Shown here: positions 30,523 to 56,334 of the stretch, one piece after another
How positions within the stretch are numbered: position 1 is the first letter of the stretch
Layout: the number at the start of each line of letters is the position of its first letter
Notes under the pieces: model-generated
Told to the model about the DNA's origin: nothing
Database searches by the model: none
The model's input: only the letters and a program-made list of their open reading frames with translations
Assembly: GCA_964572855.1 (NCBI GenBank)
Contig: CAZNGF010000001.1
Span: 14,099-78,098, forward strand
Source of the DNA: an uncultured Thermotogae bacterium
GTDB taxonomy: Bacteria; Bipolaricaulota; Bipolaricaulia; RBG-16-55-9; JAJCYT01
Direction: 5' to 3'
DNA length: 64,000 nt
Program-made: the position numbers and the translations under genes

Positions 30523-31754
30523 TCTGTCCGCCTCGGATCAGAGGCATCCGGATTTGGTCTTTGAAAAGTGAATAGAGTGTGCCGCAAGCGCAGTAAGGGC
30601 ACGTGGTGGATGCCTTGGCAGATGGAGGCGATGAAGGGCGTGGTAGGCTGCGATAAGCCGCGGGGAGCCGCCGAACAGGCTTTGATCCGTGGATGCCCGA
30701 ATGGGAGCACCCGCACCGCTGAAGGCGGTGGATCCAGGGCCGAAAATCTCAAGTAAGCTCTGGAGGCCAACCCGGGGAAGTGAAGCATCTCAGTACCCGG
30801 AGGAAGAGAAATCAACCGAGATTCCCCTAGTAGCGGCGAGCGAACGGGGAAGAGCCCAAACCCGATGTGCGCCAAGAGTGCAGTCGTTGCTCATCGGGGG
30901 TTGTAGGACGGCCCGTAAGGTCCCTGCATGGACCTTGAGGAGTTACAAACGCATCCTTTAGTTGAACGGCCTGCAAAGTCACTGGAAAGGGCGACCGGAG
31001 AAGGTGAAAGTCCTGTAAGCGAAAAGGGATGCGCTCCTCGTGGCTGGACCTGAGTAGCGTCGGACACGAGAAATCCGGCGTGAAGCTGGGAGGACCACCT
31101 CCCAAGGCTAAATACTCCCATCTGACCGATAGTGAACTAGTACCGCGAGGGAAAGGTGACAAGAACCCCTGACGGGGAGTGAAATAGAACCTGAAACCAC
31201 GTGCTTACAGACAGTGGAAGGGCCAAGGTCTTTTCGCTTCGGCGAATCGACCAGCCTGACCGCATGCCTTTTGCATTATGATCCTGCGAGTTATCGTATG
31301 TGGCAAGGTTAAGCCTCACTGGGGCGGAGCCATAGTGAAAGCGAGCCTGAATAGGGCGTGGAGTCACGTGCGATAGACCCGAAGCCGAGCGAACTAGCCA
31401 TGGCCAGGTTGAAGCACATGTGATAGTGTGTGGAGGACCGCACCGGTGGACGCTGAAAAGTCCTCGGATGAGCTGTGGTTAGCAGTGAAAAGCTAGACGA
31501 GTCTCGGTGATAGCTGGTTCTCCCCGAAATATATTTGGGTATAGCCTCAGGCATCGAAGCAAGCGGGGGTAGAGCACTGGTTGAATGCGGGGCAACCCAA
31601 TTTCAGTCAAACTTCGAATACCGTTTGTGAATTCCTGGGAGTCAGTCTATGGGGGATAATCTTCATGGACAAGAGGGAAACAGCCCGTAACCGCCAGCTA
31701 AGGTCCCCAAGTTTAGGCTAAGTGAAGAAGGATGTGCGATTGCTAAAACAGCTG

Positions 31755-31800
<46 letters not shown>

Positions 31801-32602
31801 CCACCAGTCTAGTGGTTGTGCGCCGAAGATGAAACGGGACTCAAGCCTAACGCCGAAGCTGCGGGCTCGGACCGCCTGCGGGCGGACCGAGCGGTAGGGG
31901 AGCATTCTGCAGTAGGATGAAGTCGGCCCGTGAGGGTCGATGGACGAGGCAGAAGTGAGAATGCAGGAATGAGTAGCGCGAGCTGAATGAGAAATTCGGC
32001 CACCGATTGCCCAAGGTTTCCTGGGGAAGGCTTATCCTCCCAGGGTTAGTCGGTCCTAAGCTGAATCCTTATCGGAGTAAGCGATGGACAACGGGTTAAT
32101 ATTCCCGTACCTCCGGTTGTGCGTTATCAGCAAAGGGGTGACGCTGTGGGCTGTACCGAGCGGGGTAACGGTTATCCCCGTGCAAGCGCCAAGGCGTCGG
32201 ACGCCAGGAAAATCCAGCGTCCGGTTAAGTCGAGGCGTGATGCGGAGGACCTAAGGGTCCGAAGGAAGGTAAGTCTGGAGCCAAGAAAAACCTCTAGCGA
32301 GTGCATCCGGAGACCGTACCGCAAACCGACACAGGTAGGCAGGTAGAGGATACCAAGGTGGACGAGATAACCCCTGTTAAGGAACTCGGCAAGTTGGCCC
32401 CGTAACTTTGGAAGAAGGGGTGCCTCTTGCGAAAGAGGCCGCAGTGAATAGGCTCTGGCGACTGTTTATCAAAAACACAGGATCCTGCTAACTCGAAAGA
32501 GGACGTATAGGATCTGAAGCCTGGCCACTACCGGAAGGTCAAGGGGAGGTGTGCAAGCACCAAACTGAAGCCCCGGAGAAGGCCGGCCGTAACTATAACG
32601 GT

Positions 32603-33279
32603 GGTTTTTGCTGCCGAAAACGGCCGTTGCAAAATCTAGCCATATGCTGGGACGGCTCACGTATCCCGATGCTACCGAGGAGGTTACAATGCATGGGCGG
32701 AGCTAATCAGCAGGAAAGGCTATCCGAGCACGAAACCAAATGGTTCCTTGCGGGTTTCATCGAAGGCGAGGGAAGCCTGTGTGTCTCGATCAAGGCGCAT
32801 CCCACCGCCAAGTTTGGGTACTATGTGGACCCGGAGTTCTTCATCTACCAACACAAGAGCGGGGTATCCGTTCTTAAGTTGGCCCAAGAGATCTTCGGGA
32901 CCGGAAGCATTCATCCCAAGCAGGGCAACGAGGATGTGCTGGTCTACGCGATCACGAGTCGGCGTAGCTTGAGAGAGCGGGTCATCCCTTTCTTTGAAAC
33001 CTACATGGTCTTGTCTGCAAAGCGCGATGTCTTTGAGAGATTCAGGGAGATCGTGATTGCCATGGAAGATCGCAAGGAGCATTTGACCCCTGATGGCTTG
33101 GCGCGCATCGTCGAGCAGGCGTATGCGATGAACCCGGCGAGTAAGGGGAAGCAACGCAAGCGTTCGTTGCAAGAAGTGACGGATAGAATCCTCAGAGGCC
33201 ATACGCTAGACCTCTCCCTCGAAGCGGGAGAGTGAAGAGATGGTCCGATCTTTGCAGCGATGCAAAGCTAACACAAATG
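32603..33279 (+). mobile_element. Intron in the 23S rRNA at the I-CeuI site (E. coli position 1923, helix 69/71 region); probably a group I intron
   Basis: The exon junction ...GGCCGTAACTATAACGGT | intron | CCTAAGGTAGCGAAATTCC reconstitutes the universal 23S sequence and the 26-bp I-CeuI recognition site. The 5' exon ends in U and the intron ends in G, as in group I introns. It contains a LAGLIDADG ORF. Confidence 0.8.
32693..33235 (+). CDS. LAGLIDADG homing endonuclease (single-motif, I-CeuI-like) encoded within the 23S intron
   Basis: The ATG at 32693 is preceded by GAGGAGG. The motif KWFLAGFIEGEGSLCVSI is a LAGLIDADG-type catalytic helix. The protein is about 181 aa. The track ORF from 32549 extends upstream into exon 1. 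Confidence 0.85.
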   Translation: MGGANQQERLSEHETKWFLAGFIEGEGSLCVSIKAHPTAKFGYYVDPEFFIYQHKSGVSVLKLAQEIFGTGSIHPKQGNEDVLVYAITSRRSLRERVIPFFETYMVLSAKRDVFERFREIVIAMEDRKEHLTPDGLARIVEQAYAMNPASKGKQRKRSLQEVTDRILRGHTLDLSLEAGE

Positions 33280-33317
<38 letters not shown>

Positions 33318-33628
33318 GCGCATGAATGGTATAACGACTGGAGCACTGTCTCAACAGGGGGCTCGGTGAAATTGAACTGCCGGTGCAAATGCCGGCAACC
33401 CGCGGTAGGACGAAAAGACCCCGTGGAGCTTTACTGGAGTTTGGCATTGGGGCTTGATGCATTTTGTGTAGGATAGGTGGGAGCCTTTGAAGCCGGGGCG
33501 CTAGTCTCGGTGGAGGCGTCCTTGAAATACCACCCTTTATGTATTGGGTCTCTAACCTAGCGTCGTGAAGAGCGGCGCGGGGACCGTGTTAAGCGGACAG
33601 TTTGACTGGGGCGGTCGCCTCCTAAAAA

Positions 33629-33661
<33 letters not shown>

Positions 33662-33785
33662 GTTAGCGATCAGCCATTGAGTGTAAGGGCATAAGGGAGC
33701 TTGACTGCGAGACCCACAAGTCGAGCAGGTGCGAAAGCAGGCCCTAGTGACCCTACGGCTTCTGTGTGGAAGGGCCGTGGATCAT

Positions 33786-33816
<31 letters not shown>

Positions 33817-33875
33817 AGTACCGCCCGAGAGTCCACATCGACGGCGGTGTTCGGCACCTCGATGTCGGCTCATCT

Positions 33876-33906
<31 letters not shown>

Positions 33907-34316
33907 CGTCTGTTCGCCGGTTAAAGAGGTACGTGAGCTGGGTTCAGACCGTCGCAAGACAGGTCGGTCCATATCCGCCGTGGGCGCAAGAAGCTTGAGA
34001 GGTTTTCTCCTCAGTACGAGAGGACCGGGAGGACCGGACCGCTGGTGTACCAGTTGTCCCGCCAGGGGCACCGCTGGGTAGCTATGTCCGGACAAGATAA
34101 GCGCTGAAGGCATCTAAGCGCGAAGCTTCCCTCGAGACAAGGCTTCTTAGACCCCTCCGAGACCAGGAGGTTGATAGGCCACAGGTGTACGCACGGTAAC
34201 GTGTTCAGCCGAGTGGTACTAATGGTCTATTGCTTGCACTATGCACACTCTATTCACTTTTGAGGGACCAAGTCCCCCGACTTGAAATTCGGCCCGCCAG
34301 GGGCGGGTCCACGGAC

Positions 34317-34434
34317 TTCAGGTGGCCATAGAGCAGGGGAAACACCCGTTCCCATCCCGAACACGGCAGTTAAGCCCTGCTTCGCCGATGGTACTAAGCT
34401 CGTAAGGGCTTGGAAGAGTAGGTTGCCGCCTGGA
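34317..34434 (+). rRNA. rrf: 5S ribosomal RNA
   Basis: GGTGGCCATAGAGCAGGGGAAACACCCGTTCCCATCCCGAACACGGCAGTTAAGCCCTGCTTCGCCGATGGTACT...GAGTAGGTTGCCGCC matches the bacterial 5S consensus and lies about 75 nt downstream of the 23S gene. Confidence 0.9.
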
Positions 34435-52291: not shown

Positions 52292-55060
52292 ATGCACGGG
52301 CTCGAGCGTCGGGTCGTGTGCGGGTTGGCGTTGCTGTTGGCGCTGGGGGCGTTGGCGGGGTGCGCGCAGTTCTCGGGGTGGTTCCGGGACGCGCCCGAGG
52401 GGGTGGCGGCCTCGTTCGAGGGGAGCTACGCCTGGGAGATGCTGGGGGTCGAGCGGGGCAAGCAGCCCCAGGCCTGCGGCGCGGCGCTGGGGGCCCAGGC
52501 GGCCAAGGCCAAGGCGCAGGAGCTGCTGAGCCGGATGCGCGAGGCCCAGCAGTTGCAGGCGCTGCTGGGGGCGCGGGGCAAGCCGCTCAAGCTGGGCAAG
52601 GCGGCGGCCTGCCGGGTCAAGCGCGACCAGCCGAAGCGCGGACGCGGGGTGGCCTTGCAGGACGGCGGCCCAACCGGCGAGGAGGAGATCGGCACGCTGG
52701 TCGAAATCCCGGCCGGCAGCGACGCGGCGCTCTACCTGGCCGAGGTGTATGATGAGGGCGAAAGCTGGGCCTCGATCAAGGAGGTCGACCCCGAGGGCGA
52801 GCGCCTGGTGCAAATCGAGACGCTCGTGCCCGAGGACTACGATCTGGAGCCGGAAGGGGAGCTGAGCGTGGGCGAGGTGCCTTGGTTCCTGCCGGGCGAG
52901 ACGGGCAGCGGCGAGTTGATCGCCGAGGTGCTGGAGGGGCTGGCCGAGGCGGGGCCGGAAGGGTGGGTGTTCCGGCCGGCGGCGCTGGCCGAAGCCGATC
53001 CGGCGTACCTGGCGTTTGCGCAGGAGGCCAGCGACCCGGAGCTGGACTGGAGCCAGGCGGACGCGATCGTCGACGAGGAGAGCGAGGAGTTGGTGTTGTT
53101 CGTGCCGTCGGCGGGGGCGGTGGCCGCGGGCGAGGCGTTGTGGGGCTCGCGGTTGAGCTTCCTGGACGACGGCCATTCGCTAGCGGTGCGGGCGCCGGTG
53201 CGGCGCGTGACCCGGCCCGCGACCAACACGCAGCGCTGGACGGTGCAGCGCAACACGACCACGCAACGCCCGACAATCCGCAGCACGATCCGGACGCGCC
53301 ACCTGCCCCAGCCGTTTGGGTTGTGTCCCTACCAGCACTACGGCCGCCTGTCACGGGCCAAGAAAGCGCTCTGCAACACGTGGGAACAGAGGCATCAGCC
53401 CAAGGTCAACCGGGTCAAGTTCAAGTCGGCGAAGAAGAACGTGCGGGAGACGAGCCAAAAGACCGTGCAAACGTTGAATGCCAACGCCAGCGTGATCGGC
53501 TTGAGCGGCAAGAACGCCAACCTCGTGTTGGCCGGCTTCAAGGACGTCTCACAGGAGCGGATCGACAAGTTCTATCAGGAAGCGGCCCGCGCGGCGGCGT
53601 CAGGGGCCAACCAGACCAACGGCCTGCTGAGGTTCCCCTTCATCGCGGACAACGATCGGTTGCCGGATGACCGGCTCTCGCCGCCGGAAGACACAATTTC
53701 GACAGCGGTCAATGCGACGTGCTCGTTTGCCAGTGACTTGATTGGCCAAATTACACGTGTAGGGGAAAATACGATTGATGCTATCTGCTTCATTCTGGGC
53801 GAGATGAACGGTTGGCGAGAAGTCCAATCTGTGCAAGAACAAGCAGACTTACGTGAAGGAATAAATAGAATCGCAAGTCAAGCTTTTGGTGTAGAGGTGT
53901 TTACATTAGGCGATATAGAGAAACGCATTTTAGGGATAGAAAATGCAGGTCTTTCTTCAGATGAAAGGCAACAGGTCAACAGCTTCCTCGGTCAATTGGA
54001 ACAACTGTTACAGCAACAGATGGGAACAGAATCCCTGGAGGCAAGCAAAGTATTGGCTACAGCGCTGTTTGGGTTGAGACAAGCATTTCGTGCTTCTCAT
54101 ACTGAAGCTGATGCAATCGGGAACGGTCAGCTCTTCGTCAAAAGCATGATCGACGAGATGGGCCCAGAGCTGTTCTTGATGATTCACTTCATGCAACAAG
54201 CAACTTCAGAACTGACTTGGAATATCAATGCCGACTGGGAGCGCCATATCCCTGTGCAGGACTTCGCTACGTTGGGGAAGTTCCTCGACATGCTCAAGAG
54301 CAAAGACATCATCAACACGGACAACGCCGTCAAGCTGATCACATTTGTGGGCGTCTTCTCCCAGCTCGCGCTGGAGAACGGCATGACGTTTGAGGTGAAG
54401 GAAGCGCTGGCCCGCGCGGGTTTCCTGGCCGAACTGGCCGTGGAAGCCCAAGTCGCAGGTTACAATACCGCGCAACAATTTGAGGTGCTCACCGAGATCG
54501 GAGGAGAGTCGGTCGATTTCAAGTTTCAGTCTTTAAAGCTGAGAATAGAAGACAAGACAACGTTTATCACGGGTATCGTGGTGCCTTTCTTGAAAGACGG
54601 GGTCGCAGTCAAGGGGTTGATTGAGAGGATCAAGAAAGTAGACAAGGCGCTTGAAGGCAGCGCAGGGAACGCTCCCCAATTGATCGTCGTGGTCGTCCAA
54701 CAAGCCAGCGAGGCCAATGTGAACGAGTTGTGCGCGGACGTGCGTTCCGGGCGTACGTTTGCGTTCGTGGTGGTCATCGTCAACGGGCGCGTGGCCCTGA
54801 ACGGGACGTGTCACAGCATCGACAGCTCGGTCAATGACAAGCTGCTGGGTTCTGGGCGTGATGGGGGCGATGTAGCCCAAGGGGTCTGTGACCTGGAGGT
54901 CACGCTCTGCGGAGGCGAAACGGACACGTCTTCATCCGGCGGTGGGGGAGCCAGCGCACCGCCGGTGATCGTGAGCCTGCCCCTGCCGCCCGAGGTGCTG
55001 TGTCCGGGAGGCGGCGCGTGCTTGACCCCGGAAGGGAAGAGGCTGTGGCTGGGTGACTGA
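52292..55060 (+). CDS. Large lipoprotein of unknown function; its C-terminal ~330 aa are paralogous to the downstream gene
   Basis: Lipobox MHGLERRVVCGLALLLALGALAGC. The N-terminal half is acidic. The C-terminal module is shared with 55144-56334 (RIAS...SSDER.Q.NSFL.QLEQLLQQ...GQLFV...MGP.LFLM.HFMQQATS.L.WN ... CADVR..RT.AFVVV..NGR...LLG.GR...QVCDLEVTLCG). Codon position 3 is GC-rich except in the 53690-54300 segment. Confidence 0.75.
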   Translation: MHGLERRVVCGLALLLALGALAGCAQFSGWFRDAPEGVAASFEGSYAWEMLGVERGKQPQACGAALGAQAAKAKAQELLSRMREAQQLQALLGARGKPLKLGKAAACRVKRDQPKRGRGVALQDGGPTGEEEIGTLVEIPAGSDAALYLAEVYDEGESWASIKEVDPEGERLVQIETLVPEDYDLEPEGELSVGEVPWFLPGETGSGELIAEVLEGLAEAGPEGWVFRPAALAEADPAYLAFAQEASDPELDWSQADAIVDEESEELVLFVPSAGAVAAGEALWGSRLSFLDDGHSLAVRAPVRRVTRPATNTQRWTVQRNTTTQRPTIRSTIRTRHLPQPFGLCPYQHYGRLSRAKKALCNTWEQRHQPKVNRVKFKSAKKNVRETSQKTVQTLNANASVIGLSGKNANLVLAGFKDVSQERIDKFYQEAARAAASGANQTNGLLRFPFIADNDRLPDDRLSPPEDTISTAVNATCSFASDLIGQITRVGENTIDAICFILGEMNGWREVQSVQEQADLREGINRIASQAFGVEVFTLGDIEKRILGIENAGLSSDERQQVNSFLGQLEQLLQQQMGTESLEASKVLATALFGLRQAFRASHTEADAIGNGQLFVKSMIDEMGPELFLMIHFMQQATSELTWNINADWERHIPVQDFATLGKFLDMLKSKDIINTDNAVKLITFVGVFSQLALENGMTFEVKEALARAGFLAELAVEAQVAGYNTAQQFEVLTEIGGESVDFKFQSLKLRIEDKTTFITGIVVPFLKDGVAVKGLIERIKKVDKALEGSAGNAPQLIVVVVQQASEANVNELCADVRSGRTFAFVVVIVNGRVALNGTCHSIDSSVNDKLLGSGRDGGDVAQGVCDLEVTLCGGETDTSSSGGGGASAPPVIVSLPLPPEVLCPGGGACLTPEGKRLWLGD

Positions 55061-55143: not shown

Positions 55144-56334
55144 ATGAACAGGCCAGGGCAACAGCAGTGGGTGTTCATTGTGATCTTGGTGATATTGGCG
55201 TTGTGGATGTTGAATGACATAACTGTTTGGCAGGGAAGACAGCAGGTTAGAGATCAGTCAGATCTGCGTGACGCATTATTTAGAATTGCAAGTGCAGCAC
55301 TTGCTGTTGCAGATATCACTAGAGAAGATATTGAGGAGCGGTATTTAGGAGAAGCTAGGTGGGTTTCCTCAGATGAAAGGCATCAGTTAAATAGTTTCCT
55401 TATTCAATTGGAGCAATTGCTTCAGCAGGAGTCGACAACCAAAAACCTAGAGGCAAGCCAGGTATTGTCTGGCACCTTGTTGGGGTTAGGCCAGGCATTT
55501 CGTGCTTCTCATGCTGAAGCTGATGCGATTGTAAACGGTCAACTCTTCGTTGAGAATTTACTCGACCCCATGGGCCCGGGGCTGTTCCTGATGCTGCACT
55601 TCATGCAGCAAGCGACCTCGCAACTCGCTTGGAATACCAACAGCACCGACTGGGAAAGCTACATTCCCGTACAAGACTTCGCCGCGCTGGGGACGTTCCT
55701 CAACATGCTCAGGAACGAGACCACGATCAACACGGACAACGCCGTCGCGCTCCTCTCGCAGGTGGGCCGCTTGTCCCAGCGCGCGCTGGGAGAGGGACCC
55801 ACGCCTCAGATCAAGCAAGCGCTGGCCCGTGCGGGCTTTCTGACCGAACTGGCTGTCGAGGCCCAAGCCGCGGGTCTGAGGACCAGCTGGGACTTTGCGG
55901 TCTTGGGCGAGATCGAAGGCGAGCCGCTCGACTTCACGCTCCGCTCGCGCCGCTTGGTCGCGGGCGACGAGCCCACGCCCGTCGCAGGGCTGGTGCAGCC
56001 CGCCCTGGTCGATGAGGCCGGGGCCCAGGCGCTGTGGGCACGGATCAACGCAACGGACAACGCCCTCCGCTCCAAGCGCGCGGCCGACCTGCTGGCCGTG
56101 CTGGTGGCGCAGGCCGGGGAGGCGTCGCTCGCGGCGCTGTGCGCGGACGTGCGAGCCCAGCGGACACACGCCTTCGTGGTCGTCGTGGCCAACGGGCGCA
56201 CGGCCTGCCACAGCGCCCAAAGCACGGCGGATGCCAAGCTGCTGGGCGCCGGGCGCGCCCGAGCCGAGCTGGCCCAGCAGGTCTGCGACCTGGAAGTCAC
56301 GCTCTGTGGGAATGAAAGAACCGTTGGTCGTTGA
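55144..56334 (+). CDS. Membrane-anchored paralog of the C-terminal module of the upstream lipoprotein (unknown function)
   Basis: 396 aa with an N-terminal TM anchor (WVFIVILVILALWML). It is co-linear with the module of the 52292-55060 protein and ends with the same QVCDLEVTLCG motif. The first ~420 nt are markedly AT-rich. Confidence 0.75.
   Translation: MNRPGQQQWVFIVILVILALWMLNDITVWQGRQQVRDQSDLRDALFRIASAALAVADITREDIEERYLGEARWVSSDERHQLNSFLIQLEQLLQQESTTKNLEASQVLSGTLLGLGQAFRASHAEADAIVNGQLFVENLLDPMGPGLFLMLHFMQQATSQLAWNTNSTDWESYIPVQDFAALGTFLNMLRNETTINTDNAVALLSQVGRLSQRALGEGPTPQIKQALARAGFLTELAVEAQAAGLRTSWDFAVLGEIEGEPLDFTLRSRRLVAGDEPTPVAGLVQPALVDEAGAQALWARINATDNALRSKRAADLLAVLVAQAGEASLAALCADVRAQRTHAFVVVVANGRTACHSAQSTADAKLLGAGRARAELAQQVCDLEVTLCGNERTVGR

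Follow-up and report, generated by a model that had tools for sequence, protein, structure and literature searches.

A probable mobile group I intron at the I-CeuI site (L1923) of the 23S rRNA gene in a high-GC relative of Bipolaricaulota

Position 1923 of the large subunit (LSU) rRNA is known as an intron site from chloroplasts, where it is occupied by Ce.LSU.5/I-CeuI of C. eugametos and So.rrl.1 of Scenedesmus, both introns of subgroup IB4 with a LAGLIDADG open reading frame (ORF) in L6 (PMC1513399). I-CeuI is the enzyme that cleaves the chloroplast LSU 1923 site (PMC3315327). Archaeal IB4 introns have been described at LSU/1923 and LSU/1931, also from metagenomic assemblies, with an ORF-containing class of ~680-760 nt (Nawrocki, Jones, and Eddy 2018; PMC6125680); in those searches the Rfam model RF00028 gave no significant matches, and the introns were found with subgroup models. 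For bacteria, 23S introns were listed in 2007 at four sites in domains IV and V, L1917, L1931, L1951, and L2593 (Thermotoga, Simkania, Coxiella, and Synechococcus), with lengths of 654-774 nt and single-motif LAGLIDADG proteins of 143-189 aa, the ORFs reaching from a peripheral loop into P7, P3, and P8 (PMC1995217); a similar overlap of ORF and core was reported for cyanobacterial L1917 introns (Haugen et al., PMC1995217). Outside CPR, the rRNA genes of bacteria are still regarded as rarely containing group I introns.

In the 64-kb window, by which we mean the whole stretch of DNA that was analyzed, an Rfam scan identified two rRNA genes, that for 5S rRNA at 34318-34434 and, at 30583-34240, a bacterial 23S gene that is complete and matches the LSU model over positions 1-2925 with 2542 bits. 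The local 23S alignment contains one large insertion, of 682 nt against 5 model positions; the model is unbroken up to ...GCCGUAACUAUAACGGU and resumes at ...GUAGCGAAAUUCC beyond the insertion, apart from which the exons together align to the complete LSU rRNA model, so that the exon continuity on which the preliminary description of this DNA depended holds. Read directly from the sequence, exon 1 ends in ...TAACTATAACGGT at T32602 (AACGGT) and exon 2 starts with CCTAAGGTAGCGAAATTCC at C33280 (CCTAAGG). The insert therefore occupies 677 nt, begins and ends with G, and has precisely the boundaries and junction first proposed for it, including the final U of the 5' exon and the final G of the intron. 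It separates U1923 from C1924 of the E. coli numbering and so lies at the I-CeuI site, within the 3' strand of helix 69, and the exon junction is one that we take to be identical to the I-CeuI target. No RNA family other than 23S and 5S, and hence no intron family, was returned by the Rfam gathering scan of the 64 kb. A second 23S gene was likewise absent from the window, as had been supposed from the sequence, and neither a 16S gene (Rfam) nor a tRNA gene (ARAGORN) was found there, which indicates that the rRNA genes are unlinked in this genome.

The ORF within the insert had been described as a frame of 181 aa starting at 32690; it is present, with its ATG at 32693 (MGGANQQERLS...), its TGA stop at 33233-33235 and a length of 180 aa, which is also that of an identical protein in the public databases (P0001). 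A frame at 32549-33235 in a mechanically generated list starts inside the exon and was discarded as an artefact. The Shine-Dalgarno sequence attributed to the ORF was recovered as GAGGAGG (32678-32684), 8 nt before the ATG, and the LAGLIDADG motif LAGFIEGEGS as the only such motif (LAGFIEGEG) in a match that spans the whole of the Pfam model LAGLIDADG_1 (Table 1). E25 and E27 of the motif are invariant in 25 homologues, and its acidic catalytic residue is present. Among the 923 database relatives of the endonuclease, the best 120 are at least 62% identical to it. The comparison with I-CeuI that had been suggested gave 55% identity over 93 aa of the core (BLASTP, window protein). Among the alignments listed, I-CeuI (2ex5) is also the best PDB match per domain, scoring 95 bits with the single sequence and 127 bits, in one domain, with a 25-sequence profile, whereas no single domain of the other PDB chains among those alignments exceeds 88.5 bits with that profile; two-motif fungal enzymes rank higher in total score only by summing two domains. 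On this sequence evidence the ORF is a putative LAGLIDADG homing endonuclease gene of the I-CeuI lineage, with one motif per chain as in the homodimer type.

Of the two Rfam scans suggested in the preliminary description, that for group II found nothing and that for group I (Intron_gpI, RF00028) gave 19.5 bits (E=0.021), far below the gathering score of 50. The 3' half of the model (J6/7, P7, P3', P8, J8/7 GAAGAGAUGGUC, and P9) aligns convincingly and matches the consensus GAAGAUAUAGUC, and the 5' half is misplaced inside the ORF, the poor fit being explained by an ORF loop of ~450 nt and the missing P2. Because only a sub-threshold match was obtained, homologues were sought, a fold was built by hand and its covariation was tested. 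A scan of one genome per GTDB species yielded 80 loci; 57 of these have, at the same position, an insert of 667-721 nt enclosed by both of the flanking 23S motifs. When the 5' and 3' ends of these introns are aligned, long invariant blocks alternate with covarying segments. The covariation set comprised 40 non-identical homologous introns with the ORF interior removed.

In the hand-built fold 92.5% of 2518 cells pair across the 40 introns, a value that falls to 33-44% when partners are slid by 1-3 columns; changes on both sides are found at 41 of 63 pairs (17-19 when slid), and the covariation score is 0.415 against 0.07-0.13. None of 500 shuffles reached any of the observed values. Several compensatory pairs occur in each of P3, P5, P5a, P6a, P7, and P9; P4 and P6 are uninformative for covariation, being invariant. 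Run on the same 40-intron alignment without the hand-built structure, RNAalifold recovered P1, P3, P4, P5, P5a, P5b, P6, P6a, P8, and P9 (62 pairs, 39 of them compensatory). For P8 the register first drawn by hand was wrong for the family (55% paired) and was replaced by the better one from RNAalifold. Pairing in P1 reaches 99.6% of cells, with a U.G at the splice site in all 40 introns, and compensatory changes link exon AACCGU with guide GGCGGUU in actinobacterial introns (loci L046 and L055) and exon UGACGGU with guide GCCGUCA in two others (L074 and L075).

Table 1. Coordinates of the interrupted 23S rRNA gene, its intron, and the modelled ribozyme elements in the window
Feature	Position	Strand	Basis and remarks
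23S rRNA exon 1 (E. coli 1-1923)	30583..32602	+	Rfam LSU_rRNA_bacteria, sequence; ends at U1923 in helix 69 3' strand
Group I intron, 677 nt	32603..33279	+	Sequence, Rfam alignment, covariation, RNAalifold; P2 absent, omega-G 33279
Homing endonuclease gene (putative), 180 aa + TGA	32693..33235	+	PF00961, E=1.4e-17; single LAGLIDADG motif; 923 homologues
23S rRNA exon 2 (E. coli 1924 to end)	33280..34240	+	Starts CCUAAGGUAGCG; Rfam, sequence
P1	32597..32628	+	Exon AACGGU 32597-32602 with guide GCCGUU 32623-32628; U.G at 5' splice site
P1 hairpin extension GUUUUU/GAAAAC	32604-32609 / 32616-32621	+	Between exon strand and guide
P3 UCUAGC/GCUAGA	32635-32640 / 33205-33210	+	100% paired, double changes in 5/6 pairs; also RNAalifold
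P4-P5-P5a-P5b arm	32645..32712	+	Covariation; same helices in RNAalifold
P4 UGCUGG/UCAGCA	32645-50 / 32707-12	+	Invariant
P5 GGCUC/GAGCU	32654-58 / 32700-04	+	Double changes in 5/5 pairs
P5a CCC.AUGC/GCAUGGG	32665-72 / 32691-97	+	Double changes in 7/7 pairs
P5b ACC/GGU	32674-76 / 32682-84	+	Covaries to ACU/AGU
P6 GG/CC	32713-14 / 33190-91	+	Invariant
P6a CUAUCCG/CGGAUAG	32720-26 / 33180-86	+	91% paired, double changes in 9/9 pairs
3' half of core	33180..33245	+	P6a' and P6' (33180-91), J6/7, P7, P3', P8, J8/7
P7 GGCCAU/AUGGUC	33197-202 / 33240-45	+	95% paired, 3 double-change pairs; pseudoknot with P3
P8 hairpin	33212-18 / 33226-32	+	Supported in RNAalifold register
J8/7 UGAAGAG	Between P8 and P7 3' strand	+	Contains ORF stop codon
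P9 hairpin CUUUGCA-GCGA-UGCAAAG	33250..33267 (33250-56 / 33261-67)	+	98.9% paired, double changes in 6/7 pairs; conserved GNRA tetraloop

The fold from P1 to P9 that the preliminary description had called for can thus be drawn, including the pairing of the internal guide with the 5' exon end, with one helix missing: the guide is followed by GCAAAA and then directly by P3, which leaves no room for P2. All modelled core pairs of the window copy are standard with the exception of the two outermost positions of P6a and of one U-U, which is the outer end pair of P5b. In its architecture (P2 absent, ORF in the P6a loop), the modelled intron is IB4-like. The terminal G of the window copy is shared by ~50 of the 57 family members, the other 7 ending in A (L024, L026, L056, L058, L064, L069, and L073); shifting the boundary restores no G in these L1923 introns, and a Coxiella intron lacking a canonical omega-G has been described (Raghavan et al. 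2007, as cited in PMC11270868). In seven introns (L014, L029, L041, L042, L047, L052, and L053) an extra ~45-60 nt follows P9 and holds two covarying hairpins resembling P9.1/P9.2; the window copy is without them.

The ribozyme core amounts to ~225 nt (32603-~32728 and ~33180-33279), and the greater part of the ORF is contained in a loop of ~450 nt closed by P6a. Codons 1-12 and ~163-180 overlap ribozyme helices. At the 5' side the AUG (32693-95) forms part of the P5a 3' strand, codons 2-12 run over P5', P4', P6, and the 5' strand of P6a, and the Shine-Dalgarno sequence occupies the loop and 3' strand of P5b; at the 3' side the last ~18 codons run over P6a', P6', J6/7, P7, P3', and P8, with J8/7 supplying the UGA at which the frame stops. 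The insert is as short as it is because the ORF, besides filling the P6a loop, extends into the core on either side. Of the two explanations initially offered for its small size, overlap of ORF and core is therefore the one that stands; the other, an unusual intron class, does not, the intron being IB4-like and without P2, as is the chloroplast L1923 intron. The overlap also accounts for the invariance of N6-R10 (AAUCAGCAGGAAAG) and R166-R169 (..AGAAUCCUCAGAG..) in the protein alignment, and makes the locus a clear case of a protein-coding frame that a ribozyme core constrains at its start and at its end. An ORF-less relative of 293 nt (in L035) keeps the same RNA blocks without coding and closes P6a with a short loop, and in L074 the ORF begins later, within L6, with the P5b sequence kept. 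Five actinobacterial introns (L036, L037, L046, L048, and L055) have a hairpin of ~30 nt inserted in P5b and no Shine-Dalgarno sequence; the AUG column reads ACG in them, an in-frame GUG lies just upstream, and ACC/GGU is replaced by the compensatory ACU/AGU. As aligned, these actinobacterial introns differ in their translation signals and keep the P5b helix.

Site, covarying fold, and Pfam match agree with the main claim of the preliminary description, namely that L1923 is occupied by a group I intron bearing a single-motif LAGLIDADG gene. The insertion at this site, the intact ORF of the I-CeuI family, and the covariation-supported group I fold are features of the DNA itself, and the sequence makes it highly probable that the 23S gene of this high-GC relative of Bipolaricaulota harbours a mobile group I intron belonging to the L1923 lineage.

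Helix 69 forms an essential intersubunit bridge. As 677 extra nucleotides within its 3' strand should be harmful, it is unlikely that the insert, though descended from group I introns, is no longer removed, being either kept in the mature 23S rRNA or spliced only with the help of a host or intron protein; the window copy has every core helix intact, as well as the terminal G, and the compensatory changes over 40 introns point to continued selection on the fold. Such a loss of splicing does have a precedent in the wider family, since the Simkania L1931 intron is unspliced according to the title of Everett et al. 1999 (as cited in PMC11270868), and a conserved fold alone is hence no guarantee of removal. 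P10 is weak in the window copy, where only C1924-G32622 and U1926-A32620 could pair, and the homologues that end in A suggest that some family members may splice poorly.

The two further readings concern the class of the insert. Intervening sequences (IVSs), which are cut out by RNase III-type cleavage without religation and leave a fragmented 23S rRNA, are the commonest 23S insertions in non-CPR bacteria, but the short-insertion sites tied to known RNase III-cleaved IVSs are 23IS2 and 23IS4, neither of which is 1923 (PMC11270868), and the Coxiella IVS lies in helix 45 (PMC4990558). An IVS is moreover a simple extended hairpin located at the tip of a helix, whereas the insert lies in the helix 69 stem and has a multi-helix core with a P3/P7 pseudoknot, U.G pairing of guide and exon, a terminal G, and an endonuclease gene, so that its removal as an IVS is very improbable. 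LAGLIDADG genes are also carried by archaeal rRNA introns of the bulge-helix-bulge type (PMC2602781) and by some group II introns (PMC13190283). That the insert belongs to either class is scarcely credible, because the host rRNA scores as bacterial (Rfam), the helices supported by covariation are those of a group I intron, no group II family was detected between 32450 and 33450 when Rfam was run permissively, and the ~135 nt outside the ORF are too few for group II domains I-VI. The reading followed below is that of a mobile group I intron.

In such an intron the pre-23S transcript would fold into a P2-less core consisting of P1, P3-P9, and a P5a/P5b arm, the guide GCCGUU would pair with the exon end AACGGU and hold U1923 in a U.G wobble, and an exogenous guanosine bound in P7 would attack after U1923. 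G33279 would then take over the G-site, and ligation of the exons would restore helix 69. The 180-aa protein would be translated from the excised or the precursor intron RNA, and a homodimer like that of I-CeuI would cut intron-less 23S rDNA at TAACTATAACGGT|CCTAAGGTAGCGA, with double-strand-break repair driving homing; the candidate intron-less target sequence is TAACTATAACGGTCCTAAGGTAGCGA. The protein may also assist RNA folding, a maturase role having been reported for the Thermotoga L1931 protein (PMC3984707). Competition between RNA folding and translation is to be expected, since P5b contains the Shine-Dalgarno sequence and P5a the AUG. We infer splicing, cleavage specificity, homing, and the coupling of translation with folding from established group I and LAGLIDADG biology, the cleavage specificity from homology only.

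Intron and endonuclease occur together at L1923 in ~70 of the 80 loci, a count that adds tandem, partial, and variant-exon loci to the 57 in which both flanking motifs are present, and the species-level MAGs concerned carry more than 20 phylum or candidate-phylum labels. These include Bipolaricaulota, Fraserbacteria, Melainabacteria, Chloroflexota, Gemmatimonadota, Latescibacterota, Chlamydiota, Armatimonadota, Acidobacteriota, Thermaceae, Bacteroidia, Verrucomicrobiae, Planctomycetes, Actinomycetota, Nitrospirales, Gamma- and Deltaproteobacteria, Omnitrophota, Caldiserica, Spirochaetota, Margulisiibacteriota, Eisenbacteria, and Aminicenantes. The remark that rRNA introns are rare in bacteria thus remains true per genome, yet the family spans many bacterial phyla. 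Two loci (L006 and L007) are identical intron-bearing 23S segments in MAGs labelled "bacterium" and "archaeon"; the archaeal label is probably a binning error.

At L1931, 8 nt downstream, 10 loci have the same core and a homologous endonuclease (43-63% identity). In eight of them (L045, L051, L054, L061, L068, L070, L078, and L079) the intron, of ~700-820 nt, follows CCTAAGGT; L071 and L072 were assigned to L1931 from the exon flank only. The L1931 guide is GCCUUAG in most (GCCUUAU in L078) and pairs with CUAAGGU, the L1923 guide being GGCCGUU, so that one family has apparently been retargeted by 8 nt through a change of guide. Tandem introns at L1917 and L1923, separated by a 6-nt micro-exon (AACGGT), are found in four gammaproteobacterial loci (L050, L062, L063, and L077) and in L001 and L021, and L061 combines L1917 with L1931. 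In L035, L030, L039, and L043 the L1923 intron is followed by an 8-nt micro-exon, CCTAAGGT, and a second insert of ~290-320 nt. Read from the sequence, that of L035 (L035:3585-3878) is an ORF-less copy of the same core that appears to end in A; a search of this second insert for P1 and a guide found neither.

Several observations bear on the host. Identity of the 23S exons to the 80 loci does not exceed 79-81%, the best being from Bipolaricaulota; a neighbouring ABC-F protein has its best named matches among Bipolaricaulota/Acetothermia at ~50-52% identity, and unnamed ones at 58-65%; and the closest endonucleases also come from the Bipolaricaulota group (82% to Acetithermum). Exon identity, ABC-F matches, and endonucleases together indicate a deep relative of Bipolaricaulota. 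Compared with L076, the whole intron shows 77.9% identity and the exons show 78.7%, figures with which vertical descent of the intron within a Bipolaricaulota-related lineage is plausible. The flanking DNA has ~64-73% GC and the rRNA region 55-59%. Elsewhere in the window, two adjacent paralogous ORFs on the + strand, of 922 aa (52292-55060, with a lipoprotein-like N-terminus, ...LGALAGC) and 396 aa (55144-56334), share ~380 aa, and neither has a Pfam match; their GC content of 45-58%, against ~69% for the genome, suggests that they may be a recently acquired gene pair.

A wider proposal, to which we give an even chance, is that the I-CeuI-type L1923 intron, far from being a curiosity of organelles, is a member of one bacterial ribozyme-plus-endonuclease family, spread thinly across more than 20 phylum or candidate-phylum labels. 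Under this proposal, the family would be retargeted between 1923 and 1931 by the guide only (GGCCGUU to GCCUUAG), with core and homologous endonuclease kept; tandem copies with micro-exons of 6-8 nt would be tolerated; the invariant N- and C-terminal residues of the protein would be dictated by the RNA; and the chloroplast and archaeal L1923/L1931 introns would possibly be offshoots. The occupation of the classic I-CeuI target in many free-living bacterial lineages bears on the annotation of rRNA genes, on amplicon and primer design across domain IV, and on the origin of organellar rRNA introns, and the family may be a ready natural source of enzymes resembling I-CeuI and directed at a site that is universally conserved.

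Introns of this kind are familiar, chloroplasts and archaea already provide examples at the site, and the case adds no new principle. Nothing relevant came from a literature search for "L1923", and 1923 is absent from the LAGLIDADG_1 site list of the 2024 CPR survey and from its one supplement available as text (PMC11270868). The bacterial 23S site lists that were found (L1917, L1931, L1951, L2593, and the CPR sites) omit L1923, and its breadth outside CPR seems to be under-reported. Compared with the bacterial introns listed in 2007, the window intron resembles them in the single LAGLIDADG motif, in the extension of the ORF from a peripheral loop into P7, P3, and P8, and in its location in the same part of the 23S rRNA, and differs in its site, which is absent from the four then listed; with the L1931 introns among the 80 loci it has ribozyme and endonuclease family in common. 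The archaeal LSU/1923 and LSU/1931 introns are alike by description, occupying the same two sites, whereas the rRNA of the window host is bacterial. Ce.LSU.5 shares the site and the IB4-like architecture, but belongs to a chloroplast, whereas the window host is a free-living high-GC bacterium, and in the window it is at both ends that the ORF overlaps the ribozyme core. The window protein, whose activity is putative, shares with I-CeuI the single motif and the conserved core, and is shorter, with 180 aa against the 207 residues of the crystallised chain, of which it lacks the first ~40.
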